The notes under the pieces: generated by a model | The model's input: the letters and a program-made list of their open reading frames with translations, nothing else | What the model was told of the DNA's origin: nothing | The model's database searches: none | Assembly (NCBI GenBank): GCA_031261985.1 | Contig: JAISIR010000001.1 | Coordinates: 72,009 to 136,008 of the forward strand | DNA: 64,000 nucleotides | Reading direction: 5' to 3' | Origin: Clostridiales bacterium | Lineage (GTDB): Bacteria; Bacillota; Clostridia; Monoglobales; WRBX01 | Shown: piece after piece, positions 4,211 through 60,838 of the stretch | How the letters are laid out: every line of letters starts with the position of its first letter | Numbering within the stretch: position 1 is the stretch's first letter | Translations under genes and position numbers: made by a program

Positions 4211-4242
4211 AAATTCTTAAGTCTTAATTAATCACCGACTAA

Positions 4243-5034: not shown

Positions 5035-5105
5035 AATAAATGCTCCCCCTTATTCATTATATTATATCACACAATTAAGCCAATTGCAATAGTTAATTTA
5101 TGTTT

Positions 5106-6552: not shown

Positions 6553-6559
6553 AGTAAAA

Positions 6560-6613
6560 TCCTCCTTAAAAGAATGTATGCGGGATATGGGGGAAATATT
6601 CTTTAAAGGAGGA
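6560..6613 (-). promoter_or_regulatory. SD-sequestering hairpin in the leader of gene 6034..6552
   Basis: On the minus-strand RNA, UCCUCCUUUAAAGAAU (6613-6598) pairs 15/16 with AUUCUUUUAAGGAGGA (6575-6560). The second arm contains the SD, 7 nt before the ATG. Confidence 0.55.
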
Positions 6614-6666
6614 TAAAGGTAAGCTATAAGCCAGAAGCAAGAAATAAAGTTTCTGCTGGCAAAACT

Positions 6667-7395
6667 TCATTCTTCCATATTATGATAATAATTCATGACG
6701 TCGTCGTTATTATCTAGCAGGTCAAAAAGCTTCTCTAGCTTGGCTTGGTCGGCTTCGTTATCTACATTGGCATACGTGTTTGGCACATATTGAATCTCTG
6801 CCTGTGATATACTAAACCCCTTGCCCTCAAAGTACTCATGCACCTTTTGGAAGTCCTTTACTTCGGTCTTAATCTCGCACATATCCTCATTAAACTCGAT
6901 ATCTTGTGCGCCTGCATCTAGTGCCTCAAGCATAATATCGTCCTGCGCGCTCTCGTCGATGCCTTCTAGCATAATAACGCCAAGGCGTTGGAACATAAAC
7001 GAAACGCTGCCGCTTTGACCTAAGTTACCGCCCTGCTTATCGAAATAGTGACGCATATCTGCCGCGGTGCGATTTTTATTATCGGTAGTCGCCTCGACTA
7101 TTACCGCCACGCCTGCTGCGCCATAGCCTTCGTATACAATTTCTTCGTAATTGCCCGAGCTAGTGTCGCCCTCGCCTTTTTTGATGCTACGCGCAATATT
7201 ATCGTTTGGAACATTATTAGCTTTAGCCTTGGCGATAACTGCGCGGAGCTTGGCATTGGTTGTTGGGTCGCCACCGCCACCTGTGCGGACGGCAACTACT
7301 ATCTCACGTCCGATTTTGGTTAAAACTTTAGCGCGTTGTGCATCGTTTGCACCTTTTTTACGTTTTATTGTTGCCCATTTGCTATGTCCTGACAT
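6667..7395 (-). CDS. YebC/PmpR family DNA-binding transcriptional regulator
   Basis: Canonical N-terminus MSGHSKWATIKRKKG; 242 aa. Confidence 0.9.
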   Translation of the reverse strand: MSGHSKWATIKRKKGANDAQRAKVLTKIGREIVVAVRTGGGGDPTTNAKLRAVIAKAKANNVPNDNIARSIKKGEGDTSSGNYEEIVYEGYGAAGVAVIVEATTDNKNRTAADMRHYFDKQGGNLGQSGSVSFMFQRLGVIMLEGIDESAQDDIMLEALDAGAQDIEFNEDMCEIKTEVKDFQKVHEYFEGKGFSISQAEIQYVPNTYANVDNEADQAKLEKLFDLLDNNDDVMNYYHNMEE

Positions 7396-7443
7396 ATGGT
7401 TTAACCTCGCTTTAAAATGAATTAATTTATTTTAAATCAAGTC

Positions 7444-10781: not shown

Positions 10782-11255
10782 TTATTTATCGATAGAAAGA
10801 ATGGTAAATGTATTGATGCCGTCGGGTGTATCGATTTTAACCTTTTGCCCAACTTTATGACCAATTAGTGCGTTGCCAACAGGTGACTCGTCAGAAATTT
10901 TGAAGTTAAAAGGGTCTGCCTCGGTAGCGCCGACGATAAAGTACTCGACATCTTCGTTATATTTTTTATCGTGAACCTTAACCTTACATCCTACAGAAAC
11001 CACGTCAGTTTTAATCTCGTCATCGTTTACAATTTTAGCGTGTTTAATTATGTTTTCTATCTCGATTATTCGGGCTTCCATCTCTGCCTGTTCGTTTTTA
11101 GCGGCATCGTACTCGGCGTTCTCTGAAAGGTCGCCAAACGAGCGTGCTTCTTTAATTTTCTCGGCAATTTCTTTGCGACCGATAGTGATTAAATCGTTTA
11201 ATTCGTCTTCTAATTTTTTAAAACCGCTTTGAGTTACCGTCATCTCTTTAGCCAA
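10782..11255 (-). CDS. greA: Transcription elongation factor GreA (TTG start)
   Basis: 157 aa with SFGDLSENAEYDAAK in the coiled-coil finger. AAGGAG SD lies 9 nt before TTG. Confidence 0.95.
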   Translation of the reverse strand: MAKEMTVTQSGFKKLEDELNDLITIGRKEIAEKIKEARSFGDLSENAEYDAAKNEQAEMEARIIEIENIIKHAKIVNDDEIKTDVVSVGCKVKVHDKKYNEDVEYFIVGATEADPFNFKISDESPVGNALIGHKVGQKVKIDTPDGINTFTILSIDK

Positions 11256-11340
11256 AATTTACAGCTCCTTATTGTATATATCTTTATTCTAACATATTTT
11301 GAAATAAAAAGCAATAGTTTTTTTTAAGTTTTTTTCGTTT

Positions 11341-11363
11341 TTTGTTAAATTTGTGTTAAATTT
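11341..11363 (-). promoter_or_regulatory. TTAACA-N5-TTAACA upstream element, site b (greA)
   Basis: Plus strand reads TTTGTTAAATTTGTGTTAAATTT. Lies 26 nt upstream of the -35 of TTGCTT-17-TAGAAT (11286..11314). Confidence 0.5.
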
Positions 11364-23430: not shown

Positions 23431-23578
23431 TACGTTACCACCTTTTGGATTAATTATAATACATAAATATTAAAAGGTCAAGTATTTTAAGACAAAAAAA
23501 TAAGCGGATTGAATCCGTTTTTAAGATATTATTTATATTACAAAATAGTTAAAATATTGTTGCTATTGTTAGTTCGTG

Positions 23579-23607
23579 TTGACTTTTGTCAGTTTTTTTG
23601 ATATAAT
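23579..23607 (+). promoter_or_regulatory. Promoter of small-peptide mRNA, copy 1
   Basis: TTGACT, 17 nt, then TATAAT. Confidence 0.6.
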
Positions 23608-23684
23608 ACCTTTGGTAGTTCAACAAGGGGATATTCAGCTTGTGATGGTTGGCTTCCTTGCTCAACAGCAAGGAGGTGGTGCCG

Positions 23685-23756
23685 ATGAAGAAGTTTATAA
23701 TTGCTTTTGTAATTATACTTATTCTGATGGCGTTCTTTGCTACTCCGGTAGTTTAG
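23685..23756 (+). CDS. 23-aa hydrophobic peptide MKKFIIAFVIILILMAFFATPVV (candidate type I toxin, copy 1)
   Basis: GGAGGTG SD lies 8 nt before the ATG and there is a consensus promoter upstream. A paralogous ORF is conserved at 37713..37784. Missed by the 60-aa-minimum ORF track. Confidence 0.45.
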   Translation: MKKFIIAFVIILILMAFFATPVV

Positions 23757-23759
23757 AGT

Positions 23760-23862
23760 AAAAAAACAACCGTCTTACCCTTGTAAAGTTGACGGTTGTG
23801 ATAATAACACTATAGAAATTTGCAAGGAAGCTAGCCGTTATAATCGGTTTTCCCCTTTTGTT
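23760..23862 (-). ncRNA. Predicted ~100-nt antisense RNA (candidate antitoxin, copy 1)
   Basis: Bounded by minus-strand TTGACA-17-TATAAT (23869..23897) and a hairpin ACAACCGTC/GACGGTTGT followed by T7 on the minus strand only. Ends are inferred, not measured. Confidence 0.4.
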
Positions 23863-23868
23863 ACTAAC

Positions 23869-23897
23869 ATTATACTATATGTTTTATTATTTGTCAA
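23869..23897 (-). promoter_or_regulatory. Convergent antisense promoter, copy 1
   Basis: Minus strand reads TTGACA (23897-92), 17 nt, then TATAAT (23874-69). Confidence 0.6.
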
Positions 23898-23920
23898 TAG
23901 TTTGTTGTATAAATATTTTC

Positions 23921-24145
23921 TTAAACTCTTGGCATATTCATACCTTTTGATAGGTTTTTATTTTGGACCACGCCCTTTGCAGAAGTAGAATTTTTTGCAT
24001 AATTAATCCTCTCTGCCATTGTAGGGTCTAACATTTTATTTTTAGCTGCAAGTGAATCGGTAATTTTGACAGCTAACCCTTTACCTGCGTTTAACGCTCT
24101 TTGGCTTGCATCTATTTTTTGTGCATGTCTTTTTAATACGTTCAT
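23921..24145 (-). CDS. Hypothetical small basic protein (74 aa)
   Basis: ORF lies 30 nt downstream of the 113-aa ORF on the same strand, probably in one transcription unit. No family recognised. Confidence 0.5.
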   Translation of the reverse strand: MNVLKRHAQKIDASQRALNAGKGLAVKITDSLAAKNKMLDPTMAERINYAKNSTSAKGVVQNKNLSKGMNMPRV

Positions 24146-24175
24146 CTTATATTCACACCTTTAAAATCTAATTTT

Positions 24176-24517
24176 TTACACATCCACGCCTATTGTTGAA
24201 ATAATATCTTCAAATGCTATATCGGCATCGGTTACAATTTTGCTAAACTGTGCGCAGATATCTTCGACAAATGTGTTAACGGTTTCCTCGGTGCGCTCGC
24301 CACTTTGGATAAGAATTTTTGAATTGCGAATGATATCCAATTGCATTTTTGCAGAGATTTGAGTTAGGTTGTTAATTATGTTGTTCTTAATCGTGTAAAG
24401 GTCGGCGTCTTCTTCTATAGCATGGGCTATAATTTGGCTAGACTCGACTATTTTTTGTGCTAACTCGGCACCATTTGTGTTTATTAGTTTTTGAAAGTTA
24501 GTTGTGTTTTCTAACAT
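24176..24517 (-). CDS. Hypothetical acidic protein (113 aa)
   Basis: ORF sits behind TTGAAA-17-TATAAT (24551..24579) and the TTAACA-N5-TTAACA element. No family recognised. Confidence 0.55.
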   Translation of the reverse strand: MLENTTNFQKLINTNGAELAQKIVESSQIIAHAIEEDADLYTIKNNIINNLTQISAKMQLDIIRNSKILIQSGERTEETVNTFVEDICAQFSKIVTDADIAFEDIISTIGVDV

Positions 24518-24596
24518 AAAACAACACCCTATTCGTTTGATTATACCTTTATTATAACATATTTTGCAAACAATTTCAACCCCTAAAAAGGCTAGT

Positions 24597-24619
24597 TATG
24601 TTAAATTTGTGTTAAATTT
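24597..24619 (-). promoter_or_regulatory. TTAACA-N5-TTAACA upstream element, site c (gene 24176..24517)
   Basis: Plus strand reads TATGTTAAATTTGTGTTAAATTT. Lies 17 nt upstream of the -35 of TTGAAA-17-TATAAT (24551..24579). Confidence 0.55.
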
Positions 24620-29183: not shown

Positions 29184-29302
29184 AAAATTACGCTCCTTTT
29201 AGGTGATTTATTCCTGCATTTAATCGCACAAAATATCTATAATTTGTAAAACTATTTTTTTGATATATCGCCAAACTTGGCGATTTTAATATACTCGTTT
29301 AA

Positions 29303-29331
29303 ATTATAATCTATTTTATAAATAAAGTCAA
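29303..29331 (-). promoter_or_regulatory. Promoter inside 73-nt unit A (drives ABC ATPase/permease)
   Basis: Minus strand reads TTGACT, 17 nt, then TATAAT. Confidence 0.6.
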
Positions 29332-29337
29332 TAGTGC

Positions 29338-29370
29338 AAAAAAAGGTGCCGATTAAGCAATCGACACCTT
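29338..29370 (-). terminator. Intrinsic terminator in 73-nt unit A (ends the 558-aa gene)
   Basis: Minus strand reads AAGGTGTCGATT-GCTT-AATCGGCACCTT followed by T7. Confidence 0.7.
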
Positions 29371-29512: not shown

Positions 29513-31189
29513 TTAATACCACCCGCTGCTTTGAGGGTATAATTCTCTGGCAATTTTTTGCAAGATTTCTAACTTTTTATCATTGAATTTATTTTGTTCT
29601 TCATCATTTTTGTTGTAAAGCTTGGCAAACGTATTAAATCGCTCTTTAAATTCGTTGTCACAATAAATATCATAATGAATTAAATATTTAAATTCGGATA
29701 AAATTTCTTTTAGTTTTTCTTCATCTAGATTTAACGTATAAAAATAAACAAAGCATTCCTCAACAAATTCACAGTTTTGATTTACTTCTGTGATAACTTT
29801 ATCTTTATTATATTCCCGTACGTCGAATTCATCAAATAAAAACAGAAGATATTTAACCGCTTTTTCTTTAAAGTCCCCATCATTTAAAGCCTTTTCTAAT
29901 TTGTCTTTGAGGTTACTATTGGCTATTATATTATCAATAATATTTTTATAAAAAGTGGTTGTGTTTCCAATTATTGAAGCGTCAGTGGTATAGTATCCAA
30001 AATAATATGCATATATAATGAGGAATATATTAGTTAGATTAATATCTATATAATTGTTATTATATAATGAGCGATTATTTAAATCACGTTCAAATTGATT
30101 GTACCCATAAATAGATTTAATTAGATTTTTATCATTATTTTTTATGCACTCGATAATATAATAAAAATAGTTAAATTCTTTAATTTCGTATTTTGTTTTT
30201 GGTAATATTGGCATAAATGTGTGTGGTTTATAATTAACTTTACTGTAGTCTTTTTCTTCGTTAATCCAAAGATAATGAGATTCGTCTAAAACATGTTTTA
30301 ATAGATCATTTTTTTGCTTTTGATTAATCAATTTGTTTTGTGTTATTGAATTGTGTAAATCATAAGAAATATACGCTGTAGAAGCCGTTAATTTTTTTCT
30401 TCTATCAAGATTCTCAAAAATTGCTTCTAGTGCTGTATGCAATATGTGGCCGTTAAATTCGTAATCTAAATTGACAAATTCTATTAAATCAATAGTTTTA
30501 CTGATTATATCATGGTCTTCGTTTAAGTAAATTTTTTTATAATTAGATATTAAATATAATTGTTCAACTAAAAATAGCGCTTCTGATATTTCCTTTGGTT
30601 CTTTACTCTCTATAGCATCGTTTAGCATATCAACAAAGAATTCGCCAGTCTCCAAGCTATGGTTTTTAGACCTTTGTATTGTCTTTTTTATCATATAATC
30701 TCTAATTTCACCTTTGATTTTTTCTTCTGCTCCTAAAATTTCTAGCGTATCTTTTATTAGGTAAATATTGGCTATCACTAATAAAAAGAATATGTAAGCC
30801 ATTGTGTTAAAGTATTGAAACTCTAGGCAAAACCAAGAGGCTAAAACTAAAACAAGCATGACGCTTAACATTATCGCTCGTCTAAAAGGTACTATGTTTT
30901 TATATGAATAGACATATTTTGCAACGGACATTCCATAAAACTTTTTATCGTTAATACTAGAAACTAACGCCAATACACTAGGTGCTAAAACCGCAATTGT
31001 AGACATTACTTGAAAGAGCGTACCATAGATATTAAGCTTATCTTGAATATCGTAGTTGGTATAAAACTTGGCAGGCAAAGTTATAATGCTTTTGTCTACA
31101 CAAAATGGTATAATCGTAATTACAATTAAAAGTATAAAAATACTCCATTGCATAATGCTATAAATTTTTAATTTGCTGATTTTTGTCAT
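29513..31189 (-). CDS. Orphan membrane protein: four N-terminal TM helices plus ~400-aa soluble K/N/Y-rich domain
   Basis: 558-aa uninterrupted ORF, visibly more AT-rich than both flanks. Flanked by a duplicated 73-nt terminator+promoter unit. No family recognised. Confidence 0.7.
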   Translation of the reverse strand: MTKISKLKIYSIMQWSIFILLIVITIIPFCVDKSIITLPAKFYTNYDIQDKLNIYGTLFQVMSTIAVLAPSVLALVSSINDKKFYGMSVAKYVYSYKNIVPFRRAIMLSVMLVLVLASWFCLEFQYFNTMAYIFFLLVIANIYLIKDTLEILGAEEKIKGEIRDYMIKKTIQRSKNHSLETGEFFVDMLNDAIESKEPKEISEALFLVEQLYLISNYKKIYLNEDHDIISKTIDLIEFVNLDYEFNGHILHTALEAIFENLDRRKKLTASTAYISYDLHNSITQNKLINQKQKNDLLKHVLDESHYLWINEEKDYSKVNYKPHTFMPILPKTKYEIKEFNYFYYIIECIKNNDKNLIKSIYGYNQFERDLNNRSLYNNNYIDINLTNIFLIIYAYYFGYYTTDASIIGNTTTFYKNIIDNIIANSNLKDKLEKALNDGDFKEKAVKYLLFLFDEFDVREYNKDKVITEVNQNCEFVEECFVYFYTLNLDEEKLKEILSEFKYLIHYDIYCDNEFKERFNTFAKLYNKNDEEQNKFNDKKLEILQKIARELYPQSSGWY

Positions 31190-31256
31190 TTAATTACCTC
31201 TTTTTTAATGTCGTTGCTAAAATTCTACAATTTTTAGCATAATATACCTTTTTTAA

Positions 31257-31285
31257 ATTATAATCTATTTAATAAATAAAGTCAA
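31257..31285 (-). promoter_or_regulatory. Promoter inside 73-nt unit B (drives the 558-aa orphan gene)
   Basis: Minus strand reads TTGACT, 17 nt, then TATAAT; identical to unit A apart from one spacer base. Confidence 0.6.
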
Positions 31286-31291
31286 TAGTGC

Positions 31292-31324
31292 AAAAAAAGG
31301 TGCCGATTAAGCAATCGACACCTT
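31292..31324 (-). terminator. Intrinsic terminator in 73-nt unit B (ends the RR-HK operon)
   Basis: Hairpin identical to unit A, followed by T7. Confidence 0.7.
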
Positions 31325-31363: not shown

Positions 31364-32929
31364 TTAAAACTTTATGACCACCTTAAACAAGTCGGCGTCT
31401 ACCTTTATTTGCATCTCGCCGCCGCACGCCTCGGTATAACTTTGCGCAATTGCCAAGCCTAAGCCATTTCCACCGTCGGTGCGAGAGCTATCGCCGCGCA
31501 CAAAACGCTCGGTAATTTCCTTCTCGTCAAAATCCATATCATAGCCGGCTATATTTTTAAACTCGATTGTTTTACCGTTAACCACTATATAGCAATTAGT
31601 ACCCTTTAGGCTATATTTTGCCATGTTTGTAATTAAGTTCTCGAACACGCGAGCCATAAGCTTACCGTCTGCACGAATAGTCTCGTCTGCCACCTTAACT
31701 CTAAACACCATATCGGTATCAACCTCGGCTAAGGTTTGGTTAATCAGCTCGGCAAGCGATAGCTCTTCCATATGCAAATCGACATTCCCGCTCGTCGCCT
31801 TGCTAATCTCGAACAACCCTTCGGTCAGCTCTTTTAGCTTAAGGCTTTTGCTATTGATAATTTGAACCTTCTCGTTATCGGGCAGTTCTTGCAAAAGCAG
31901 GCTAGAGTAGTTGATTATAGCAGTTAGAGGTGTTTTAAGGTCGTGCGATACATTAGTAACCAGCTCGGATTTCATACGCTCGGCTTTAACTTTATCGGCG
32001 GTTGCTACATCTAATCTATCTAGATTAAACACCTTGCGCACAGTTTTATAGCACCAGCGATATATCGCATAGCAAAAACTTGCTTTTAAGAACTGATGAT
32101 TCTTAATTTTACGAACTATAGATAAATATAATCCTAGCCATAATAGATATATTAACTCGATGCAGGCAAACATGGACAATTGAGTTTGAGCCGCGTAATA
32201 TGGTGCTACAAAGGCAGCTCCCGCTAACGCTGCGCACGCCAGCCATAACAATAGGTTGAATTCCGTCCATAGCTTATCGAATTTTGGATTTCCGCTGGCT
32301 AAATAGCTTAGGAATATGATTAGAATAAGCCATGCAATTGTGTACCAAGCTATAGTATTTATACGCTGCGAGAATATATCAAACTTACCCTGCCACTCGT
32401 CATTTTTTTCTGCCCATACCTGGTTATCATAGCCCGATGCAAATACAATATCTTTCTCGATAAAGTGCGAATTATAATTATAAGTTTTAGACATATCTAA
32501 GGCTAAAACTCCGTTATAATCGAGCTCGGAATTCTTTAACACCTCGCCTGTCGCCTTATTTTCGAAGTAATAGTAAATGCCAAACCTATTAGCATTTGAA
32601 TCTAGACGTTTTTTTAAGCCTTCCAAACGCTGCTCGGAGGTAATAGTCTCTTCACCTCTGCCACTATTATAATAATCTTGCCGCGCATATTCTTCTAGAT
32701 TAATCTCACGGTTGGCAATATCGTTCATCTGAGCATTTATACTATCGAGGTAATGGTAATATTCCTCATAGTTTCGCCCAGTAATGCTAAATCCAGCATA
32801 ATCATCGCTATCGGCGATACGCAATAAAACTAACCCCTGCGACATAATTTGCCACACAAGAACCATGGTTAGTACAATTAAACTAGCCTTTAAAATTTTA
32901 GAGTTTCTCCAACTTGTAGCCAATTCCAT
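31364..32929 (-). CDS. Sensor histidine kinase
   Basis: H-box VSHDLKTPLT and the G-box region GGNGLGLAIA. N-terminal TM, extracytoplasmic region and further TMs. Overlaps the RR gene by 32 nt. Confidence 0.85.
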   Translation of the reverse strand: MELATSWRNSKILKASLIVLTMVLVWQIMSQGLVLLRIADSDDYAGFSITGRNYEEYYHYLDSINAQMNDIANREINLEEYARQDYYNSGRGEETITSEQRLEGLKKRLDSNANRFGIYYYFENKATGEVLKNSELDYNGVLALDMSKTYNYNSHFIEKDIVFASGYDNQVWAEKNDEWQGKFDIFSQRINTIAWYTIAWLILIIFLSYLASGNPKFDKLWTEFNLLLWLACAALAGAAFVAPYYAAQTQLSMFACIELIYLLWLGLYLSIVRKIKNHQFLKASFCYAIYRWCYKTVRKVFNLDRLDVATADKVKAERMKSELVTNVSHDLKTPLTAIINYSSLLLQELPDNEKVQIINSKSLKLKELTEGLFEISKATSGNVDLHMEELSLAELINQTLAEVDTDMVFRVKVADETIRADGKLMARVFENLITNMAKYSLKGTNCYIVVNGKTIEFKNIAGYDMDFDEKEITERFVRGDSSRTDGGNGLGLAIAQSYTEACGGEMQIKVDADLFKVVIKF

Positions 32930-33587
32930 ACACCACCTTTAAAAGTTTAGGGTTTTTAGGGTCAATCTCTATTTTCTCGCGAATCCGCCTGATATGAACC
33001 GCAATTGTGTTGTCATTAACAAACACATCCTCGTTCCACACCGCGCGATAAATCTCTTCTGCCGAAAAAATTCGATTAGGGTGCTTGCAAAAAAGTTCCA
33101 AAATGCGATACTCTAGGTTAGTAAGCTTAACCTGCTCTCCATCGACGGTTACTTTTTTATTAAGCCCGTCAAAGGCAAGTGAGCCGATAATAATCTCGCC
33201 CATTGCAGGTGTTTGGTTAAAAACAATGCTACGACGCAACGCCGATTTAACCCTTGCTAAAAGCTCGGTAGGAGAGAATGGCTTGGTTATGTAATCGTCG
33301 GCACCGCTTAATAATCCATAAACCTTGTCGCTTTCTTCACTTTTTGCAGTTAAAAGAATAATGGGAATATTAGATGTTTTGCGAATCCGCTCCATAGTTT
33401 TAATGCCGTCTAGCTTGGGCATCATAATATCCATAAGCACTAGGTTAATGGTGTCCCGCTGCAAAATATCTAGCGCGGTAATGCCATCGGGTGCTATGCG
33501 CACTTCATACCCATCGTTGTTTAGATAAATGGCTGTGGAATCGGCTATCGCTTTATCATCATCTACTACCAAGATTTTATTTGTCAC
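32898..33587 (-). CDS. OmpR/PhoB-family response regulator
   Basis: Receiver domain (ILVVDDD, LVLMDIMMP, LTAK) plus a winged-helix C-terminus (LTNLEYRILELF..VYGIGYKL). Confidence 0.9.
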   Translation of the reverse strand: MTNKILVVDDDKAIADSTAIYLNNDGYEVRIAPDGITALDILQRDTINLVLMDIMMPKLDGIKTMERIRKTSNIPIILLTAKSEESDKVYGLLSGADDYITKPFSPTELLARVKSALRRSIVFNQTPAMGEIIIGSLAFDGLNKKVTVDGEQVKLTNLEYRILELFCKHPNRIFSAEEIYRAVWNEDVFVNDNTIAVHIRRIREKIEIDPKNPKLLKVVYGIGYKLEKL

Positions 33588-34736: not shown

Positions 34737-34827
34737 TGGCGGAGAAGGAGAGATTTGAACTCTCGCGCCGGTTACCCGACCTATACCCTTAGCAGGGGCA
34801 CCTCTTCGGCCTCTTGAGTACTTCTCC
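34737..34827 (-). tRNA. tRNA-Ser (anticodon GCT), type II, CCA encoded
   Basis: The reverse complement folds with acceptor GGAGAAG/CTTCTCC, anticodon loop CTGCTAA, a long variable arm, T arm GAGAG TTCAAAT CTCTC, then G-CCA. Confidence 0.9.
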
Positions 34828-34985: not shown

Positions 34986-35606
34986 TTAATGGATCATAGG
35001 CAAGTTGCCTCTTTGAGTAGGCTTAATAGTATTAGCATTTATATTGTTATTTTTAAACTGAGGATAGGCAGCTTTTAGCGCAGCCTTCATACTCTTGCTC
35101 TTACCAACTAGCCCTTGAACAGAAGTTGTTTCGCGCGTGCCATCTGCAACTTCTTGCATAGCCTTGGCGATAGCTTTTGTTTTATCTTTTACACTTTTGC
35201 CTTTTAATGCCTCTTTCTCGGCATCGGTTAGGTAAGGAACCATATTAGGCAATTTTGCAGCATCATCAATAGCAATTTCATTAAAAAATAATCTTGATTT
35301 TTCTTGTTGTAAATCAGCGACTTTTTGACGCGCTTGCCTATCTTCATTTACAACAGAAATATTCTCGGCTATTATAGAAACTTTCTGCCTAATGCTTGAT
35401 AAATCTTCTAAATCGTTCATCCGCGCCTCGGCTTCGGCAACTTTTTGAGGTTGAGAAATCTTTGCAGATTCTGTCAAGATATCTTCATTTAATTTCTTAA
35501 TCATCTCAGGCGTTTCAGCCGAAAGCGATACGCTTTTTTCTAACTTTTCTGCCTCATATTTTCGTATTCTTTTACCTATAACAACTTTTTTAATATCTTT
35601 AGACAT
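34986..35606 (-). CDS. Hypothetical K/E/A-rich protein (206 aa)
   Basis: ORF with AAAGGGG SD. Its promoter spacer contains (AT)10 and the TTAACA-N5-TTAACA element lies upstream. No family recognised. Confidence 0.55.
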   Translation of the reverse strand: MSKDIKKVVIGKRIRKYEAEKLEKSVSLSAETPEMIKKLNEDILTESAKISQPQKVAEAEARMNDLEDLSSIRQKVSIIAENISVVNEDRQARQKVADLQQEKSRLFFNEIAIDDAAKLPNMVPYLTDAEKEALKGKSVKDKTKAIAKAMQEVADGTRETTSVQGLVGKSKSMKAALKAAYPQFKNNNINANTIKPTQRGNLPMIH

Positions 35607-35651: not shown

Positions 35652-35682
35652 ATTATACCATATATATATATATATATATCAA
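35652..35682 (-). promoter_or_regulatory. Promoter of gene 34986..35606 with (AT)10 in the spacer
   Basis: Minus strand reads TTGATA (35682-77), a 19-nt spacer made almost entirely of the AT dinucleotide tract 35660..35679, then TGG-TATAAT (35657-52). Confidence 0.5.
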
Positions 35683-35699: not shown

Positions 35700-35722
35700 T
35701 ATGTTAAATTTGTGTTAAATTT
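35700..35722 (-). promoter_or_regulatory. TTAACA-N5-TTAACA upstream element, site d (gene 34986..35606)
   Basis: Plus strand reads TATGTTAAATTTGTGTTAAATTT. Lies 17 nt upstream of TTGATA (35682-77). Confidence 0.55.
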
Positions 35723-35816: not shown

Positions 35817-37475
35817 ATGAATATAAAACATTGCAATTGGCACAGTCATAAAAAATGTTGTAAATGTTGTGTGTGTTGCGCAGGCGGAGGTTCGGGTAGT
35901 GTGGGTCCGACAGGACCGACAGGACCGATGGGACCGACAGGGGCTACAGGCGCGATGGGGCCTAAAGGTGACACAGGTGCGACGGGCGAAACGGGTATAC
36001 AAGGTGTAGAAGGCGAGCAGGGGGTGCAAGGAATCGCTGGTAGCACGGGGCCGACAGGCGAGCGTGGCGAAAAGGGCGACACAGGGGCGAGTGGTGCGAC
36101 AGGGGCTACAGGCGAGCAAGGACTTCAAGGGATTCAGGGCATTCAGGGGATTCAAGGGGTAAAAGGGGACACAGGTGCGTCGGGCGAACGTGGGGAAACA
36201 GGAGCGACGGGAGCAACTGGGCTTCAGGGGATTCAAGGCGAGCAAGGTGTGGCAGGCGCGACGGGTGCTACAGGCGAGCGTGGAGAGAAAGGTGACACAG
36301 GCGACACAGGTCCGCAGGGATTACAAGGAGCCCAGGGTGAGACAGGTCCGCAAGGTATTCAAGGCGTACCGGGCGCGGCGGGCGAAGTTGGCTCGTTAAA
36401 AGGTGCATATGACACTTTAGAAGATTTACAGGCAGCACACCCGACAGGGAATGCTGGCGATGCGTATTATATTCAACCAGACCTATACATATGGGACACG
36501 ACGACGAACTCGTGGCTTAACATTGGCGAAATTGCAGGGCCGCAGGGTGTGACAGGTCCGCAGGGGGTACAAGGCCCGCAAGGTGATACAGGGGCGACGG
36601 GACCTAAAGGCGACACAGGTGCAACTGGGGCGACTGGCAGCACTGGAGCAGCGGGATCGACAGGGGCAACAGGTGCGACGGGGTTGCAGGGCGTTCAGGG
36701 GATTCAAGGTGACACAGGAGCGACAGGCGAGCGTGGCGAGAAGGGGGATACCGGTGACACAGGTGCGCAAGGGGTTCAGGGGGAGCAAGGGATTCAAGGT
36801 ATACCAGGTGCGACGGGGGCGACTGGGGGCATTGGAGCAACAGGTGCGACGGGCGAGAAAGGTGACACAGGCGACACAGGTCCGCAGGGCATTCAGGGTG
36901 TGCAAGGAGTGCAGGGGGTTCAAGGCGTAGTAGGTCCGACGGGACCGACAGGAGCGGCTGGCGAGGCAGGGCCAATGGGACCGACGGGGGATACAGGACC
37001 GATGGGGTCGACAGGTCCGACGGGGACTTGTGATTGTTCGGCTTTAGAAGAGAGAATAACGAATCTGGAAACAGAAATAAGGACAATAGTATCGGAAATT
37101 ACGCCGTCGACAGTGCGGACGGCATTAACTGAGGAGCCGACACTTAGCGGGATAGGGACTAGCGTTATAAACACAGGCGACACCTTTAATTTTTGGGGGA
37201 CGAATGAACTGACTCAGGCGGCTTCGCTTAATAATGGGCAGACATACTATATTGCGACGTCTGACCAATTCCCTGAACTAAAGAACTACCAAGGCTCGCC
37301 GACTATTACCACCATGTGGATAGAGAAGCCCGACGGAACGACTCAGACGGTGCCTGTGTATTTTGATTCGAATGGGATATATTTTACGCCGTCGTCTTCG
37401 ATTAATAATTTGCCAATAGGCACATCGTTTAAGTTTACGCAGGCGTTGATTTTGGATAGCGGGGATATAAGTTAG
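35817..37475 (+). CDS. Collagen-like triple-helix repeat protein (BclA/exosporium-type) with Cys-rich N-terminus and globular C-terminal domain
   Basis: Two long G-X-T/G-X-Q triplet arrays are separated by a ~50-aa non-collagen insert. N-terminus is [13 protein letters not shown]-terminal heptad segment [16 protein letters not shown] precedes a ~130-aa beta-rich domain. Confidence 0.85.
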
Positions 37476-37605
37476 GAAAAATAATTGAGAATTGAGAATG
37501 CAGAATGCAGAAATAATGTAATAAATTTTCACTAACGCTCAAATTTACAAACATGCAAAAAATATTACAAAATAGTTAAATTATTGTTACTTTTGTTGGT
37601 TTATG

Positions 37606-37634
37606 TTGATTTTTATCGAAATATTAGATATAAT
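37606..37634 (+). promoter_or_regulatory. Promoter of small-peptide mRNA, copy 2
   Basis: TTGATT, 17 nt, then TATAAT. Confidence 0.6.
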
Positions 37635-37712
37635 ACTCTCGGTAGTATAATGAAGGGGATATTCAGCTTGTGACGGATTGCTTCCTTGCTCAACAGCAGG
37701 GAGGTGGTGCCG

Positions 37713-37784
37713 ATGAAGAAATTTATGATTGCTTTTGTAATTATACTTATTCTCGCGGCAATCTTTGCTACTCCTGTAATTTAG
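37713..37784 (+). CDS. 23-aa hydrophobic peptide MKKFMIAFVIILILAAIFATPVI (candidate type I toxin, copy 2)
   Basis: Paralog of 23685..23756 with the same SD context (GGGAGGTG), same length and only conservative substitutions. Confidence 0.45.
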   Translation: MKKFMIAFVIILILAAIFATPVI

Positions 37785-37789
37785 AGTAA

Positions 37790-37886
37790 CAAAAACAACC
37801 GTCGCATCTTTGGAAAGGGACGACGGTTGATATATTCACAATAATCCAAGGAAGCTAACCGAAACATTCGGTCTTCCCCTTTTGTT
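37790..37886 (-). ncRNA. Predicted ~100-nt antisense RNA (candidate antitoxin, copy 2)
   Basis: Minus-strand TTGACA-17-TATAAT (37893..37921), and a hairpin CAACCGTCG/CGACGGTTG followed by a T-run on the minus strand. Ends are inferred. Confidence 0.4.
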
Positions 37887-37892
37887 ACTACC

Positions 37893-37921
37893 ATTATACT
37901 ACATAATTAATCATTTGTCAA
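37893..37921 (-). promoter_or_regulatory. Convergent antisense promoter, copy 2
   Basis: Minus strand reads TTGACA (37921-16), 17 nt, then TATAAT (37898-93). Confidence 0.6.
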
Positions 37922-37927
37922 TATTTT

Positions 37928-39022
37928 TTATCTAGGCGCGACCATATAGAGCATTTTAGCAGTCGCAAGCCTCATTATATGTTCTAGCACTTCAGGATTA
38001 TTCGTGTTTTCGATTGCAGCTACAATTTCTGGCGCAATCTTTACCTCTGGTTTATTGTTTGGCTTATCCTCGCGTGCCTTTTCTAAAACAGCGGCGACAC
38101 TTTTTCGCGTAACGCGTTTTTTGCTTTCAAGAATCGGCTTAATTTCCTCTAGTTTTTTAGGACTAATCCAATACTTATTGCTATTATCTTTAGCGTAAGC
38201 GTCTTTTAATGCCTCAACACTTTTTATTCCCGCTTTATACAAATGGAATTCGGTAATATCACCAAGTTTTAAAGTAGTAAGAGGGGTCTTCTTTTGCTGA
38301 ATCGCCTCGACGTAAGCCTCGATATCTTTTAAGCCGTCAGAATTAAATATCTCGCTTAATATTTCAGGCTTATTTTGATATGTTTTTACTAAATCTTTTT
38401 CTTTAAATATTCCGTTATAATTCAAGTAGTAGATATTACCAGAGCCTAGCACATTGACGTCTAAAAAACCTTTAGGTGTCATGTCATTTTTGTACATACA
38501 TTCCACTATTTTTGTAATCAGACTTTTTTCTACTTTTGCTTTACGCAACTTTGATATAATACTAGATGTTTTGGCTGCATCTTTAAAATCGTTCATATTC
38601 TTAATACCTATAGAATGCAACGCAGCAACAACATCATCAGCGCGAACATCATTTTTGAAGTAAGTTCTTAGACGAAGGTCGCGAGGTTGATATTGTGATA
38701 ACTCTGGAAGTTCTTCTAACACGTTAAAAGCACCGTGAATTCTGCGAGCAATACGATTTGCATCATAATCTTTAAAAATCTCTTTATGCTCGCTGGCTTT
38801 TAAGAATTCTTCTATTTCTTCTTCACACTTTGGTTTACCGTCGTTAAGACCATAACGCTCTTGCAATGGCAGGCGATATTCAATATCTAGCTCAGATATT
38901 TTGTCTTTTATAAACTGGATCACATCAAAATTGTAATCGGTTAAAGACACACCACCTTCTTTAACTAAATGTTTGAATAAATTTTCGTAATTTTTCTCGT
39001 ACATAAGTTTTAATCTCCCCAT
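37928..39022 (-). CDS. Hypothetical protein (364 aa) with a sigma-region-4-like RYGLNDGKP segment
   Basis: Long ORF. The ATG at 39004 (MYEKNY), preceded by GGGGAGA, is an equally good start. Served by promoter TTGACT-17-TATAAT at 39046..39074. Confidence 0.6.
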   Translation of the reverse strand: MGRLKLMYEKNYENLFKHLVKEGGVSLTDYNFDVIQFIKDKISELDIEYRLPLQERYGLNDGKPKCEEEIEEFLKASEHKEIFKDYDANRIARRIHGAFNVLEELPELSQYQPRDLRLRTYFKNDVRADDVVAALHSIGIKNMNDFKDAAKTSSIISKLRKAKVEKSLITKIVECMYKNDMTPKGFLDVNVLGSGNIYYLNYNGIFKEKDLVKTYQNKPEILSEIFNSDGLKDIEAYVEAIQQKKTPLTTLKLGDITEFHLYKAGIKSVEALKDAYAKDNSNKYWISPKKLEEIKPILESKKRVTRKSVAAVLEKAREDKPNNKPEVKIAPEIVAAIENTNNPEVLEHIMRLATAKMLYMVAPR

Positions 39023-39081
39023 TAAAAAGTTTTAAATTCCTTAACATTATACCACATAATACCTAACAAGTCAATAGATTT

Positions 39082-39101
39082 TATGTTAAGTTTGTGTAAA
39101 G
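39082..39101 (-). promoter_or_regulatory. Degenerate TTAACA-N5-TTxACA element, site e (gene 37928..39022)
   Basis: Plus strand reads TATGTTAAGTTTGTGTAAAG. Lies only 7 nt upstream of the -35 of TTGACT-17-TATAAT (39046..39074). Confidence 0.4.
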
Positions 39102-39180
39102 TATATGGGTGCATCCTCAAATTTGTATAAATCCGCCTTTGATTGTAAATAATACTACTACAAATTGAGGAGGTTTTTTT

Positions 39181-41583: not shown

Positions 41584-41633
41584 ATTTTGAGTTGTAATAT
41601 GCAAAAAATTTTATTATTAATATTAACAGGCTA

Positions 41634-41710
41634 ACGCGCGAATGAATCGCACCTTAGCTTCTAAAGTTATTTGGATATTTTCGGCGACAAGCTGCCGAAA
41701 ATTTGTTTTT
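41634..41710 (+). repeat. Two-hairpin intergenic repeat, copy R1
   Basis: ..GCGAATGAATCGC..GCTTCTAAAGTTATTTGGAT-ATTTTCGGC-GACAAGCT-GCCGAAAAT-TTGTTTTT. Lies downstream of gene 39181..41583. Confidence 0.8.
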
Positions 41711-41735
41711 ATGATAATTATTTTTGCCAAAAGTA

Positions 41736-42706: not shown

Positions 42707-42796
42707 CGCTAATTGTGGCTAAATATTCACTTTCTCATAAACGTATGATGGCAACGTAGCTCGAGATTTCGCATCGAATATTTGTATTGTATAAAT

Positions 42797-42875
42797 ACAC
42801 TTCGGCGAGTGAATCCGCCGAAGCTTCTAAAGGAAATATGATATTTTCGGCGACAAGCTGCCAAAAATCTGTTTC
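42797..42875 (+). repeat. Two-hairpin intergenic repeat, copy R2
   Basis: CTTCGGCG-AGTGAATC-CGCCGAAG, linker GCTTCTAAAG.., then ATTTTCGGC-GACAAGCT-GCCAAAAAT. Lies between convergent genes. Confidence 0.8.
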
Positions 42876-42937
42876 TATAATAAATTTCTTAAAATCTAAG
42901 TTCTTAATTGAATTTAGTTTTTTTGTTTAGCTTGGCT

Positions 42938-48437: not shown

Positions 48438-48647
48438 CTTTTTTTAATATGTAGTGTGTTCAAATTGCCGACCCGCCCGGCAATTTCTTTGGTTATATCT
48501 TTATTGTATCACAGCATCTATTTTTAGTCAATAGCGGGGTGCTGTTCGTTTTTAAGACTGGTTTTAATTAAATTTGCTATAACTATTGCAATTTATATTG
48601 TTATGTGATAAAATGTAAAAGTATATTGGTATGAAAGGATAATTGAT

Positions 48648-49729: not shown

Positions 49730-49918
49730 ACGCTGCGCGCGAATAAATCGCGCTTCGCTCGTCGCAACTGCTTCACGCGGCTAGTTTTTTGCAAAAATCG
49801 CAAAAACGTCGCTTTTGTTCCGCGTTGCTCCTCTTATCCCACAAAACGGAACTCGCGTTTTGTAGGAGCCCTTTTGTTATTTGGATATTTTTGCGGACAA
49901 GCTCGCAAAAATCTGTTT
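49730..49918 (+). repeat. Two-hairpin repeat, copy R3a, carrying a ~110-nt insertion in its linker
   Basis: The 5' half ACGCTGCGCGCGAATAAATCGCGCTTCGCT and the 3' half TTATTTGGAT-ATTTTTGCG-GACAAGCT-CGCAAAAAT are separated by extra structured sequence. Confidence 0.7.
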
Positions 49919-49931
49919 GCATTATACACAC

Positions 49932-50010
49932 ACGCTGCGCGCGAATAAATCGCGCTTCGCTTCTAAAGTAATTTGGATATTTTTGCAGACAAGCTCGCAA
50001 AAATCTGTTT
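49932..50010 (+). repeat. Two-hairpin repeat, copy R3b
   Basis: ACGCTGCGCGCGAATAAATCGCGCTTCGCTTCTAAAGTAATTTGGAT-ATTTTTGCA-GACAAGCT-CGCAAAAAT-CTGTTT. Confidence 0.8.
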
Positions 50011-50043
50011 CTATATATACATATTTAACTATTAACCAAACGC

Positions 50044-58099: not shown

Positions 58100-58154
58100 G
58101 ATATAATAATATCATTAATAATAAAAATGTCAAGTGTTTTTTTGAATGAAAACA

Positions 58155-58233
58155 ACGCAATGACGAAATGAATCCGTCATTGCTGCTAAAGATAATATGA
58201 TATTTTCGGCGACAAGCTGCCGAAAATTTATTT
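58155..58233 (+). repeat. Two-hairpin repeat, copy R4
   Basis: CAATGACG-AAATGAATC-CGTCATTG, linker GCTGCTAAAG.., then ATTTTCGGC-GACAAGCT-GCCGAAAAT. Lies between minus-strand genes 58260..59936 and 56591..58099. Confidence 0.8.
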
Positions 58234-58259
58234 GAATATTTTTATTACTTAATTACAAT

Positions 58260-59936
58260 TTAAATTATTTTTGTTTGCGGAAGGGTTGGGGGAGTGGTAG
58301 GGGTATTGTTGTCGCCGCTTATGTTTGCGCGTGTGCTTTTTAGCTGTTGTTCTTCCATAAGTTTTTGTATCTTTTCGATATTTGGGTACCCATAAAACGG
58401 GTCAGCTGCACCGCTACCGACTATGGCAATTTCTTTTAAATCGTATAACTCTTCTAACGTCAAAGCTATACAGTGGGCATTGGCAAAGTCTAGATATTTT
58501 TGTGCTTTTTGCCTATTTTGGTCTACAAAATAATTGCTGACCTCGAAATAACTCAGCTCGGGCGTTGGTATTAAGTTGGCTATTTTATTACCATTCTTAA
58601 CACCTTTTGCATATTGCACAAATTTATCGTAATTATTAAAGAATGCTCCTACTTCGTACTTAACATCGAATATTTTTTCTTCAGCTAACATATCACGCAT
58701 TTTGTCTGACATTTCGGTTTTAGAAATACGCATGAAGTCTGCCGCTGCTTTTTCATTAATCTCGCCGCCATACTTTAGCCCCTCGCTCATGTTCCAAAGG
58801 GTATCGGTATCTTTAGATTTGATAGAATTAATATATTGTTTAGCTTGAGATTTAAGGGCATTATCTTTTGAGAAAAGCCCCACATTATAGGCTATTTTAA
58901 GCAATGCAAGTGTTCTATACATGCCGGTGCTAACACCTATTGAATCGTAAAAATCTTGTGAACTTTCGATAAAGGTTTTAACATCGTTTGTTTTGGCGAT
59001 TTCGTAAAACATATACGTGTTTGGTATTATATCGGTACCTAAATCTAAATTTGCTTGTTGCCATTTATCGGCCGCCTCTAAAAAATCGGCAACTTCAAAC
59101 TCAATAAGGTCTTCACTTTTATATTCTTCAAACGAATTAATGTATCCCTTTTTGATTAAATCTTTGTAATATTTAACCTGTTCAGAAGAATTTGAAAGAA
59201 CTATCGGTCTGTCGTTTCGATACTCTCCTTTAGTTGTAACAAAAATTATTCCTTCTTTTGAAGCATCAATCGAAAACGGCTTATTATTAATTTTTACCCT
59301 ACCATAAGGCGTTATAATTTCCTGAAGATTAGAGCCTTTTATCTTGTCACTTCCGTTTAACTCTAAATTACAACGGAATGGATTTAGTATTTTTAGCTTG
59401 CGTGGCATGCGAGATGCTTCTTCTAAGACTTTTTTTAAAATTTCATCAGATGAAACATCAATAACGAGGTAATTAACATCAAATTCGCTAAGTTTTAAGT
59501 TAGCTCTTTTATCGGTTATTTTTAATTCTTCTAAAGTTACAACCGTGCCTTTTGAAGTTCGATTAATTTTAATGTCCGGGTTATTACTTTCGTTAATATA
59601 AGTCTTATCAAACGCATTAAATGCGACAAGTGTGGCTTTAGATAAATCTATTTTTCTAAGTGAAGTGTTTTTAAAAGCCGCCGCGCCTATTTGTTTTAAA
59701 TTTCCGCCTACGACCTCGCGCAACTCACCGCAATCTTCAAACACGCCTCGAGCAATTTTCTGCATGCTATCGGGCAGGATTACTTTTACTATGTCGTCTT
59801 TTACGTAATAGTCCATAGAATTGCTTGCAATGCCTACGCAGTCGTCAGGAATTTTAAGCACTCCGTTCATCCAAACATCATCACTTGTAATTTTTGTGAT
59901 TATTTTTTCGCCTTTTTTTGTTTTACTAAATTCCAT
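58260..59936 (-). CDS. Hypothetical protein with N-terminal BspA-type leucine-rich-repeat-like segment
   Basis: 558 aa. Residues ~25-110 show the IPD..IA..AF..C..L pattern of BspA-like LRRs. The remainder is unassigned, with a C-terminal PTTPPTLP tail. Confidence 0.55.
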   Translation of the reverse strand: MEFSKTKKGEKIITKITSDDVWMNGVLKIPDDCVGIASNSMDYYVKDDIVKVILPDSMQKIARGVFEDCGELREVVGGNLKQIGAAAFKNTSLRKIDLSKATLVAFNAFDKTYINESNNPDIKINRTSKGTVVTLEELKITDKRANLKLSEFDVNYLVIDVSSDEILKKVLEEASRMPRKLKILNPFRCNLELNGSDKIKGSNLQEIITPYGRVKINNKPFSIDASKEGIIFVTTKGEYRNDRPIVLSNSSEQVKYYKDLIKKGYINSFEEYKSEDLIEFEVADFLEAADKWQQANLDLGTDIIPNTYMFYEIAKTNDVKTFIESSQDFYDSIGVSTGMYRTLALLKIAYNVGLFSKDNALKSQAKQYINSIKSKDTDTLWNMSEGLKYGGEINEKAAADFMRISKTEMSDKMRDMLAEEKIFDVKYEVGAFFNNYDKFVQYAKGVKNGNKIANLIPTPELSYFEVSNYFVDQNRQKAQKYLDFANAHCIALTLEELYDLKEIAIVGSGAADPFYGYPNIEKIQKLMEEQQLKSTRANISGDNNTPTTPPTLPQTKII

Positions 59937-59962
59937 TGGATTTCTCCCCCATTATATTTGTT

Positions 59963-60565
59963 CTAAAGTGTTTTAGGTGCGGAAAACGAAGCCGCTCTAC
60001 CATTTACAAATACTAACCCCATACCATTAACATCTAGCATTGTATTACCGATGGTTACTTCATCACCGCTGATGTTTAAGCTGTTGTCTTTTACTTCGAC
60101 TGGCTTGCCTCCTAAATATGCCATTCTACCGTTCGCATATATCCTTTCATCTTTTACACATATTTTAACACCATTTAGAGTGAATTTTAGTTCCGCATCA
60201 GTATTTTCTGGTTTTTTTAACCAAGCGACTACCGAATTCAAGGTATCTTGCAAACAATTGCACCACTCGTTTGGGCAGATTCTGGCTATGCTATCGTAAA
60301 TTGCATCGAATTTTTTGCGCGGATTTATAATGATTTTTTTAATATCTTGCATAATTTGCTTAAATTCTTCATCATGTACAGAAATATCTTCGCCATTATT
60401 TACCTTTTGGCAGAGTAGTTTTGCAATATCTATTTTATAGTCAAGATGAACTTGGCTCATCGAAATACTTTTTACGCACGATTCTTCGCCTATTAGTATT
60501 AGTTCTCTTATATTTTGTTGCGAATCTTCTTGGCTTGCTTTTTTTAAATCTACATAAGCTTCCAT
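59963..60565 (-). CDS. Hypothetical protein (200 aa)
   Basis: ORF with GGGGGA SD, behind TTGACT-17-TATAAT (60597..60625) and the TTAACA-N5-TTAACA element. First gene of the string 59963..60565, 58260..59936. Confidence 0.55.
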   Translation of the reverse strand: MEAYVDLKKASQEDSQQNIRELILIGEESCVKSISMSQVHLDYKIDIAKLLCQKVNNGEDISVHDEEFKQIMQDIKKIIINPRKKFDAIYDSIARICPNEWCNCLQDTLNSVVAWLKKPENTDAELKFTLNGVKICVKDERIYANGRMAYLGGKPVEVKDNSLNISGDEVTIGNTMLDVNGMGLVFVNGRAASFSAPKTL

Positions 60566-60641
60566 TTTTCATCCCCCAATTGTATCACACTCCTATATTA
60601 TACTACTTTTTTATCAAAAAGTCAATGAATTTTAAGTGCTT

Positions 60642-60664
60642 TATGTTAAATTTGTGTTAAATTT
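60642..60664 (-). promoter_or_regulatory. TTAACA-N5-TTAACA upstream element, site f (gene 59963..60565)
   Basis: Plus strand reads TATGTTAAATTTGTGTTAAATTT. Lies 16 nt upstream of the -35 of TTGACT-17-TATAAT (60597..60625). Confidence 0.55.
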
Positions 60665-60693: not shown

Positions 60694-60722
60694 TTGCATT
60701 TATTTTGTTGTTATTATATAAT
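60694..60722 (+). promoter_or_regulatory. Promoter of the cvpA leader
   Basis: TTGCAT, 17 nt, then TATAAT. The predicted TSS coincides with the first base of repeat copy R5. Confidence 0.6.
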
Positions 60723-60728
60723 ATAAAT

Positions 60729-60808
60729 ACGCTTCGGCGGAATGAATCCGCCTGCGCTTCTAAAGTTATTCGGATATTTTCGGCGACAAGCTGCCGAAAA
60801 TCTGTTTT
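60729..60808 (+). repeat. Two-hairpin repeat, copy R5 (forms the cvpA 5' leader)
   Basis: ACGCTTCGGCGGAATGAATCCGCCTGCGCTTCTAAAGTTATTCGGAT-ATTTTCGGC-GACAAGCT-GCCGAAAAT-CTGTTTTAT. Confidence 0.8.
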
Positions 60809-60838
60809 ATACTATTTATATCAAGGTGGTGCAAAAAA

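Follow-up and report, generated by a model that had tools for sequence, protein, structure and literature searches.

What is the role of a 23-nt sequence that recurs, nearly letter for letter, in front of six genes within 64 kb of one bacterial chromosome? We addressed this in a 64-kb stretch of contig JAISIR010000001.1 from a Clostridiales bacterium (the whole stretch is hereafter the window, and all coordinates are positions in it), anchored on the copy at 35700..35722, which an earlier note made from the letters alone had read as part of a candidate regulon. The window is normal chromosomal DNA of a spore-forming bacterium of the Clostridia type and encodes an M50 protease, an SLH protein, and a collagen-like BclA-type protein besides carAB, purA/purB, lysS, and greA, and the lineage is isolated, with no close relatives in the collections searched (the nearest GreA outside the source organism is 65% identical). 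The answer we favor, and to which we give about an even chance, is that the motif serves as operator for one winged-helix regulator of the OmpR/PhoB type, bound upstream on one face of the helix, in a small regulon of greA and lineage-specific soluble proteins.

A phased direct repeat upstream of six promoters

The plus-strand 23-mer TATGTTAAATTTGTGTTAAATTT occurs exactly at 24597..24619, 35700..35722, and 60642..60664 (copies c, d, and f) and, on the same strand, with one change at 5106..5128 (copy a, AAACTTAACACAAATTTAACATA on the minus strand) and 11341..11363 (copy b, AAATTTAACACAAATTTAACAAA), and a relaxed scan adds a degenerate copy at 39082..39104 (copy e, ATACTTTACACAAACTTAACATA), which has four mismatches and the form TTTACA-N5-TTAACA. 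The six sites and mismatch levels of the earlier note were thereby reproduced by scans of both strands, and these scans, with up to six mismatches allowed, returned no further independent copy in the window; one extra match, at 11330, is the greA site displaced by a single 11-nt unit. In 100 dinucleotide-preserving shuffles of the window, there was not one match to the 23-mer, and the chance expectation is thus no copies against the six seen. All six copies are intergenic and identically oriented, facing minus-strand genes. Their flanks are unrelated by alignment, as had been claimed, apart from A/T-rich borders, and homology between copies ends within ~30 nt, the copies at 24597 and 35700 having 30 identical nt.

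This repeat also leaves its mark on assemblies, as short-read assemblies of the source genome get fragmented by it. Two Logan contigs of the same organism end exactly at the motif, L032 at window position 35720, because the 30-nt identity of the copies at 24597 and 35700 equals k-1 in a k=31 graph, and L056 at 5129. Same-organism Logan contigs lengthen the window by ~5.4 kb and ~1.1 kb, and no further motif copy was found in the added ~6.5 kb.

Read on the minus strand, the motif consists of two head-to-tail 11-nt units, AAATTTAACAC-AAATTTAACAT, with the consensus (AAATTTAACAY)x2, usually followed by AAAAC; the other-strand form of the unit is TGTTAAATTTN, and the plus strand accordingly reads TGTTAA-ATTTG-TGTTAA, i.e., TGTTAA-N5-TGTTAA. 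The 11-bp repeat is exact at all six sites. The TTAACA core is unchanged in 11 of the 12 half-sites and substitutions fall mostly outside the cores, with the AAAT that precedes the core altered to AAAC or ATAC in three half-sites. As the core is intact and the AAAT variable, the constraint appears to lie on the core and not on the A-tract, and base-specific reading of the core would fit this substitution pattern better than mere A-tract curvature.

Downstream of every copy, on the minus strand, stands a near-consensus promoter of the sigma-A type (TTGnnn-17(19)-TAnAAT), and after each promoter come a leader of 26-45 nt with a ribosome-binding site and then an open reading frame. For copy a, the promoter lies at 5061..5089 (TTGCAA-17-TATAAT, TG-extended) with a gap of 16 nt between motif and -35 hexamer; for copy b, at 11286..11314 (TTGCTT-17-TAGAAT, TRTG-extended; gap 26 nt); for copy c, at 24551..24579 (TTGAAA-17-TATAAT, TRTG-extended; gap 17 nt); for copy d, at 35652..35682 (TTGATA-19-TATAAT; gap 17 nt); for copy e, at 39046..39074 (TTGACT-17-TATAAT, TG-extended; gap 7 nt); and for copy f, at 60597..60625 (TTGACT-17-TATAAT; gap 16 nt). 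The spacer is thus 17 nt at five promoters and 19 nt at the 35700 site, the -10 hexamer is TATAAT at five and TAGAAT at one, and a TG or TRTG extension is present at five of the six. The distances are exactly those reported before (16-17 nt in four cases, 26 nt at greA, and 7 nt at 39082).

Taken modulo 10.5 bp, the six gaps span an arc of 2 nt (p = 0.003 for random gaps in simulation); the motif therefore always lies on the same helix face as the -35 hexamer, one, two, or three turns upstream. Four copies span -52 to -74 and the greA copy -62 to -84, and the copy at 39082 alone occupies the upstream-promoter (UP) element position, at ~-38 to -59. The earlier claim of a tie to six sigma-A-type promoters in fixed orientation is hence upheld and extends to helical phase. 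This phasing is the strongest internal evidence for protein contact with RNA polymerase, and the motif is real as a statistically secure, promoter-linked cis element.

The motif is also selective. At the three tRNA promoters (those before 21138, 41831, and 34827), there is no TTAACA repeat despite consensus hexamers and generic A/T-rich upstream DNA, and the other consensus promoters of the window lack the motif as well. From its absence at the tRNA promoters, it follows that the motif is not a general UP element and marks a promoter subset, not strong promoters generally, and such subset marking resembles a regulon signal. One of these tRNA genes, tRNA-Ser(gct) at 34737..34827 on the minus strand, was found by ARAGORN (the Rfam tRNA model is silent at its gathering threshold), and the consensus promoter at 34906 probably serves it.

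The 19-nt spacer of the promoter of copy d is made by a (TA)9 run at 35658..35676, and eight units would make the optimal 17 nt. The run is a possible slipped-strand tuning site; the same-organism Logan contig likewise has nine TA units, and no variation was seen.

The downstream genes and their surroundings

All six targets lie on the minus strand. Downstream of copy a is a gene for a soluble protein of 263 amino acids (aa) with no family match and a third-codon-position GC content (GC3) of 0.24 (4243..5034). Copy b precedes greA, which encodes a transcript cleavage factor (10782..11255, with lysS next) and whose identity, given by the earlier note, was confirmed. Copy c precedes a unit of 113-aa and 74-aa proteins with no family match (23921..24517), copy d a 206-aa soluble orphan (34986..35606), copy e a 358-aa orphan with only weak HhH-like hints (37928..39004), and copy f a unit of two proteins, one of 200 aa without a family match and one of 558 aa (58260..60565). 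For the gene at copy e, the start had been placed at 39022 and was corrected; it is most likely 39004 (MYEKNY..., with GGGGAG before it).

Homolog searches covered the 206-, 358-, and 558-aa proteins, and the 263-, 200-, 113-, and 74-aa proteins were checked against domain libraries. Apart from itself (LBM38_00450, from the metagenome-assembled genome (MAG) Clostridiales bacterium), the 206-aa protein has no homolog in a set of 5.8 billion proteins, and it was otherwise found solely in one Logan run. A HMMER search of 1.84 billion representatives with the 358-aa protein returned itself and two marginal matches, and its AlphaFold model has a predicted local distance difference test score (pLDDT) of 49. 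The 558-aa protein has an N-terminal BspA-type leucine-rich repeat region that is shared with other proteins, and its remainder is without homologs. The view that the targets beyond greA are lineage-specific thus held for all three searched, none of which has a full-length homolog. Across the non-greA targets, nothing significant was found in Pfam, NCBIfam, PHROGs, or PADLOC, and the targets are not paralogous to each other.

No target has a signal peptide or a membrane segment, the maximal 19-residue hydropathy stays below 1.0 in every one, and all are soluble proteins. Motif-linked units are compositionally foreign, with a GC3 of 0.30 versus 0.39 for other genes (p = 3e-4), and first genes without a family match make up 5/6 of the motif-linked set versus 3/45 of the others (Fisher p = 1.4e-4), which suggests that the motif-linked units form a coherent gene class.

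The window holds other repeated modules. An intergenic region of ~370 nt is duplicated at 23535..23903 and 37562..37927 (77-90% identical), both copies directly 3' of motif-linked orphan units; its consensus promoters, on both strands, are convergent. The plus strand of this region encodes a conserved hydrophobic peptide of 23 aa (MKKFIIAFVIILILMAFFATPVV / MKKFMIAFVIILILAAIFATPVI), a convergent short transcript on the minus strand is predicted to end at a terminator, and the whole looks like a type I toxin-antitoxin module. A two-hairpin intergenic element of ~90-110 nt is present in 5-6 copies (41610..41720, 42776..42886, 49876..50018, 58135..58245, and 60709..60819), with a core ATTTTCGGCGACAAGCTGCCGAAAAT like that of a bidirectional terminator and a CGGCGGAATGAATCCGCC hairpin before it; no Rfam match was found, and the element looks like a repetitive extragenic palindromic (REP)-type or shared terminator module.

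Two smaller modules contain promoter sequence. A 73-nt direct repeat, 99% identical between 29298..29370 and 31252..31324 and comprising a hairpin and a TTGACT-17-TATAAT promoter, flanks another 558-aa orphan (29513..31189, GC 0.27), and the arrangement suggests a cassette insertion by which the promoter region of the ABC transporter operon was duplicated. The -10/+1 module TGTTAKAATAAAGRTATA, at 11272..11294, 24537..24559, and 48489..48511, is common to the promoters of greA, the 113-aa orphan (24176), and a histidine-phosphatase gene (47880), the last of these being without a TTAACA element; from the -35 to ~+10, the promoters of greA and 24176 are identical at 33/44 positions. Finally, the gene at 35817..37475, which diverges from the motif at 35700, encodes a BclA-type, collagen-like protein (GXX repeat) whose N-terminus is Cys-rich and which is probably an exosporium or surface filament protein.

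Candidate regulators and recurrence of the motif elsewhere

If the motif is a cis-regulatory operator, its two head-to-tail 11-bp units would together be occupied by the dimer of a single sequence-specific transcription factor. This factor would most likely be an OmpR/PhoB-family winged-helix response regulator, whose recognition helix would read the TGTTAA-type core in the major groove and whose wing would read the adjacent A/T minor groove. From a site one, two, or three turns before the -35 hexamer, and always on one helix face, the bound factor would contact RNA polymerase, probably its alpha C-terminal domain, and modulate, most likely activate, the six sigma-A promoters. This would place greA and the five units of soluble, lineage-specific, low-GC3 genes under common control.

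The proposed family comes from the layout of the site, the usual footprint of an OmpR/PhoB-type dimer, and from its likeness to the WalR/VicR and ArcA sites described below. A core of 6-7 bp and an A/T-rich segment of 4-5 bp alternate head to tail every 11 bp (TGTTAAA plus TTTG or TTTT on the plus strand), which parallels the logic of the PhoB co-crystal (PMC4173790), and direct-repeat half-sites with 11-bp spacing are found at all six sites. Such a layout files the motif at the family level only, as a putative OmpR/PhoB-type site, and its best reading is a tandem direct repeat of the type bound by winged-helix dimers of this family, in line with what the earlier note had proposed for its two hexamers.

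The response regulator at 32898..33587, the only one in the window, does belong to the OmpR family, as had been stated, as a generic member that scores below every NCBIfam equivalog cut-off; its nearest solved structures (MtrA, RegX3, and RpaA) give no specificity clues. Its operon has no motif copy, and a hairpin and the separate consensus promoter at 34906 stand between this operon and the 35700-linked unit, and on these grounds, a link between the adjacent two-component system and the motif was rejected.

The earlier note had also likened the motif to the Bacillus PhoP box. PhoP boxes are TT(A/T/C)ACA repeats, and PhoP-activated promoters have at least four of them (two dimers) at about -60 to -20, replacing the -35. 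The likeness to Bacillus subtilis PhoP lies in the TTAACA hexamer on the coding strand and the 11-bp repeat, whereas here two boxes stand 7-26 nt upstream of an intact -35, the motif scan found no third or fourth box at the six sites, and none of the targets is a phosphate-starvation gene (pst, phoA/B/D, or tua). The analogy therefore fails both on architecture and for want of pho genes.

WalR/VicR (YycF) sites have the consensus TGTWAH-N5-TGTWAH, refined in S. mutans to TGTWAHA-N4-TGTWAHA (PMC4168254; consensus also in PMC9210968), and occur on either strand upstream of target promoters (PMC4168254), and WalRK has been described as present in all Firmicutes (PMC9210968). The plus strand of the motif fits both forms exactly, in its two hexamers and 11-bp period; five sites match the consensus exactly and the sixth does so with one core change. 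Yet real WalR sites are far more degenerate than the six copies of the window, domain-library searches found no peptidoglycan-hydrolase domain among the targets, and no walRK genes lie within the window. With no envelope protein or hydrolase among the targets, the set does not resemble a WalR-type regulon.

Similarly, the minimal ArcA site consists of two 10-bp repeats, ATGTTAAAAA, spaced 11 bp centre to centre (PMC4173790), and ATGTTAAAAA-n-ATGTTAAAAA is identical to the motif at 15/20 positions, with the TGTTA core and the 11-bp spacing in common. However, ArcA, a regulator of E. coli (Proteobacteria), mostly represses through promoter-overlapping sites, often of 3-4 repeats, whereas the motif here has two repeats well upstream of the -35 in a Clostridiales genome. 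Among further candidates, the Spo0A box (TGTCGAA), CodY, CcpA, and sporulation sigma promoters were set aside for lack of a sequence match to their consensus sequences, and an RNA element was rejected because of the position of the motif, upstream of promoters, and the absence of any Rfam match at that place.

Outside the window, an exact-pattern scan of 185,579 species genomes gave 31 single matches in many phyla and no multi-copy genome, and a scan of JGI/ENA metagenome contigs gave 18 single matches; the source genome itself is not among either collection. The exact 21-mer occurs as single copies at ~20 independent intergenic loci in very different phyla, including, in two unrelated genomes (L009 and L031), sites in front of pstB and pstS-like genes, where it is plausibly a Pho-type response-regulator site. 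On one unrelated contig (L046, JAAGKN010000234.1, GC 26%), the exact 23-mer plus AAAAC at 4241..4263 stands 7 nt upstream of TAGACT-17-TATAAT, followed by a 535-aa hydrophilic protein, a geometry as at 39082.

Viral sequences also carry the arrangement, and often repeatedly. We found AAAYTTAACAYAAAYTTAACA in 73 IMG/VR viral loci (L057-L129), often several per contig (e.g., L070, L071, L079, L092, L098, and L108), and in at least five sequence families of low-GC viral contigs it stands 7-8 nt upstream of a Bacteroidetes-type promoter (TTTGG ... TAnnTTTAC); in the viral copies, the TTAACA hexamers are invariant and the spacers variable. On two jumbo contigs (L097 and L110), TTAACA-N5-TTAACA lies 9-10 nt upstream of TTGACA-17-TATAAT, and Flavobacteriaceae chromosomes keep it directly upstream of one gene's promoter (L007, L015, L021, L035, L036, and L039). 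These phage elements resemble the motif of the window in the AAAYTTAACAY unit, its tandem pairing, its orientation, and its place directly upstream of the core promoter; they differ in that their hosts are apparently Bacteroidetes (-33 TTTG / -7 TAnnTTTG-type), or unknown for the jumbo contigs, that the gap is 7-10 nt only, and that spacer positions vary freely. For the viral motif, no known phage relatives were found among GenBank phages, and a literature search found no description of TTAACA-N5-TTAACA upstream of promoters, phage promoters included.

Several of the contigs show related features. The jumbo viral contigs (L123, L097, L110, L063, L102, L114, L117, L127, and L128) are 165-181 kb long with a GC content of 41-48%, and L123 has an iteron-like cluster of ~30 TTTAACA-type units at 6100..7400. 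A JGI metagenome contig (L051, 1380..1500) holds a pure tandem array of more than ten AAATTTAACAC units, and a giant-virus MAG (L124, 10132..10196) has AAACTTAACAT in tandem ~7 times.

TTAACA-N5-TTAACA before a core promoter is thus, by sequence comparison, a recurrent arrangement. Its simplest reading would be that many winged-helix regulators share this specificity, and a more general mechanism may lie behind it.

Weighing the readings

Several observations count against an operator for one OmpR/PhoB-type regulator. Activator-dependent promoters are not usually as near to consensus as these six already are. Between copies, 23-30 nt are identical, spacer included, far above what is typical of the sites of one regulon, and this identity could reflect recent copying instead of selection. 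The target set fits no known WalR, PhoP, or ArcA regulon; WalR regulons in particular comprise mainly exported cell-wall hydrolases and envelope proteins, whereas here all targets are soluble and greA is one of them. No link between the adjacent response regulator and the motif was detectable, and three distant relatives (L052-L054, GreA 62-65% identical) have no motif upstream of greA or elsewhere.

Best placed among the alternatives, though in our view unlikely, is a short dispersed repeat or portable module, spread recently by recombination or with horizontally acquired cassettes, so that identity would mean common descent, and binding by a regulator encoded on a mobile element or phage could either have persisted or been lost. 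It would account for the 23-30 identical nt common to the copies, and it agrees with the low GC3 of the linked units, with the lack of full-length homologs for the three searched targets, and with the reuse of the unit at many promoters of phage contigs. The window offers parallels in its other dispersed intergenic modules (the two-hairpin element and the 73-nt repeat), in the -10/+1 module common to the greA and 24176 promoters, and in the duplicated type-I-toxin-like module directly 3' of two motif-linked units. The low GC3 and the dispersed modules suggest an island-like acquisition of the motif-linked units and an exchange of promoter pieces within the genome, which lessens our confidence that sequence identity alone reflects binding-site selection and keeps a copy-and-paste origin of the motif in play. 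Nevertheless, the motif is a direct and not an inverted repeat, with neither terminal inverted repeats nor a target-site duplication, and homology confined to ~30 nt, unlike miniature inverted-repeat transposable elements or REP elements; no known mechanism moves a 23-nt piece alone, and the targets have no PHROG or PADLOC matches. Above all, fixed orientation and phasing beside non-homologous core promoters imply selection for function, whatever the origin of the copies.

Next, and also improbable in our judgment, comes a promoter-strength module, in which phased AAATTT tracts would be read by the alpha C-terminal domains of the polymerase or would bend the DNA, giving a constitutive boost without a dedicated regulator. 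The motif shares with UP elements and phased A-tracts its A/T-richness, its place upstream of the -35, its dependence on phase, and its occurrence at strong promoters with near-consensus cores. Its A3T3 tracts recur every 11 bp with a third A-run (TAAAAC) after them, and at 39082, with the 7-nt gap, the A/T tracts begin at ~-65, -54, and -43, which are the usual positions of phased A-tracts in Bacillus sigma-A promoters, the other sites being displaced by whole helical turns. Phages favor strong constitutive promoters, and the phage contigs carry the unit 7-10 nt upstream of both Bacteroidetes-type and sigma-70-type cores, i.e., at the classical UP position. Against such a module, the invariant part is the C-containing TTAACA core, whereas the A/T tract tolerates T-to-C changes in window and phage copies alike, and to our knowledge the E. 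coli UP consensus has no conserved C or G. Moreover, four of the six copies lie at -52 to -74, past the usual UP position, and at 5/6 sites the motif is one to two turns farther upstream than UP elements, which adjoin the -35 and are A/T-only sequences at stable-RNA promoters; the three tRNA promoters of the window, A/T-rich upstream, are without the TTAACA repeat.

A still less probable proposal, which we regard as a long shot, combines elements of the above: the motif would be a portable enhancer travelling with acquired orphan cassettes, captured by greA and read by a lineage- or element-encoded factor, and would belong to a cross-phylum class of TTAACA-N5-TTAACA mobile-element promoter modules shared with Bacteroidetes-type and jumbo phages, not to a classical two-component regulon.

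Least likely of all, we find, is a role of the motif as the binding site of a repressor, or of a factor that serves the divergent plus-strand genes (24740, 35817, 39181, and 60839). In its favor, four of the six copies lie in divergent intergenic regions, near-consensus promoters more naturally need repression, and ArcA-type TGTTA repeats are mostly repressor sites (PMC4173790). Against it, a divergent gene is lacking at 5106 and 11341, and plus-strand starts lie at varying distances from the motif (77-175 nt), with no conserved plus-strand promoter geometry; the distance to the minus-strand -35 is phased, and the motif overlaps neither core promoter nor transcription start, where simple repressors act.

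Were the operator reading to hold, no general principle would be altered, as tandem winged-helix sites upstream of promoters are textbook knowledge and the regulatory signal is fairly ordinary in kind. The parallel use by phages suggests that direct repeats of the TGTTAA type have been adopted more than once to control promoters from upstream. For the organism itself, it would mean a regulon in a deep-branching, uncultured, termite-gut-type Clostridiales, whose members besides greA are without homologs or family matches, and one regulator and one operator would then offer experimental access to what these orphan proteins do and how they are regulated, with the near-perfect operator usable as bait for capturing the regulator. 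A core transcription factor, GreA, would moreover be tied to a set of lineage-specific proteins.

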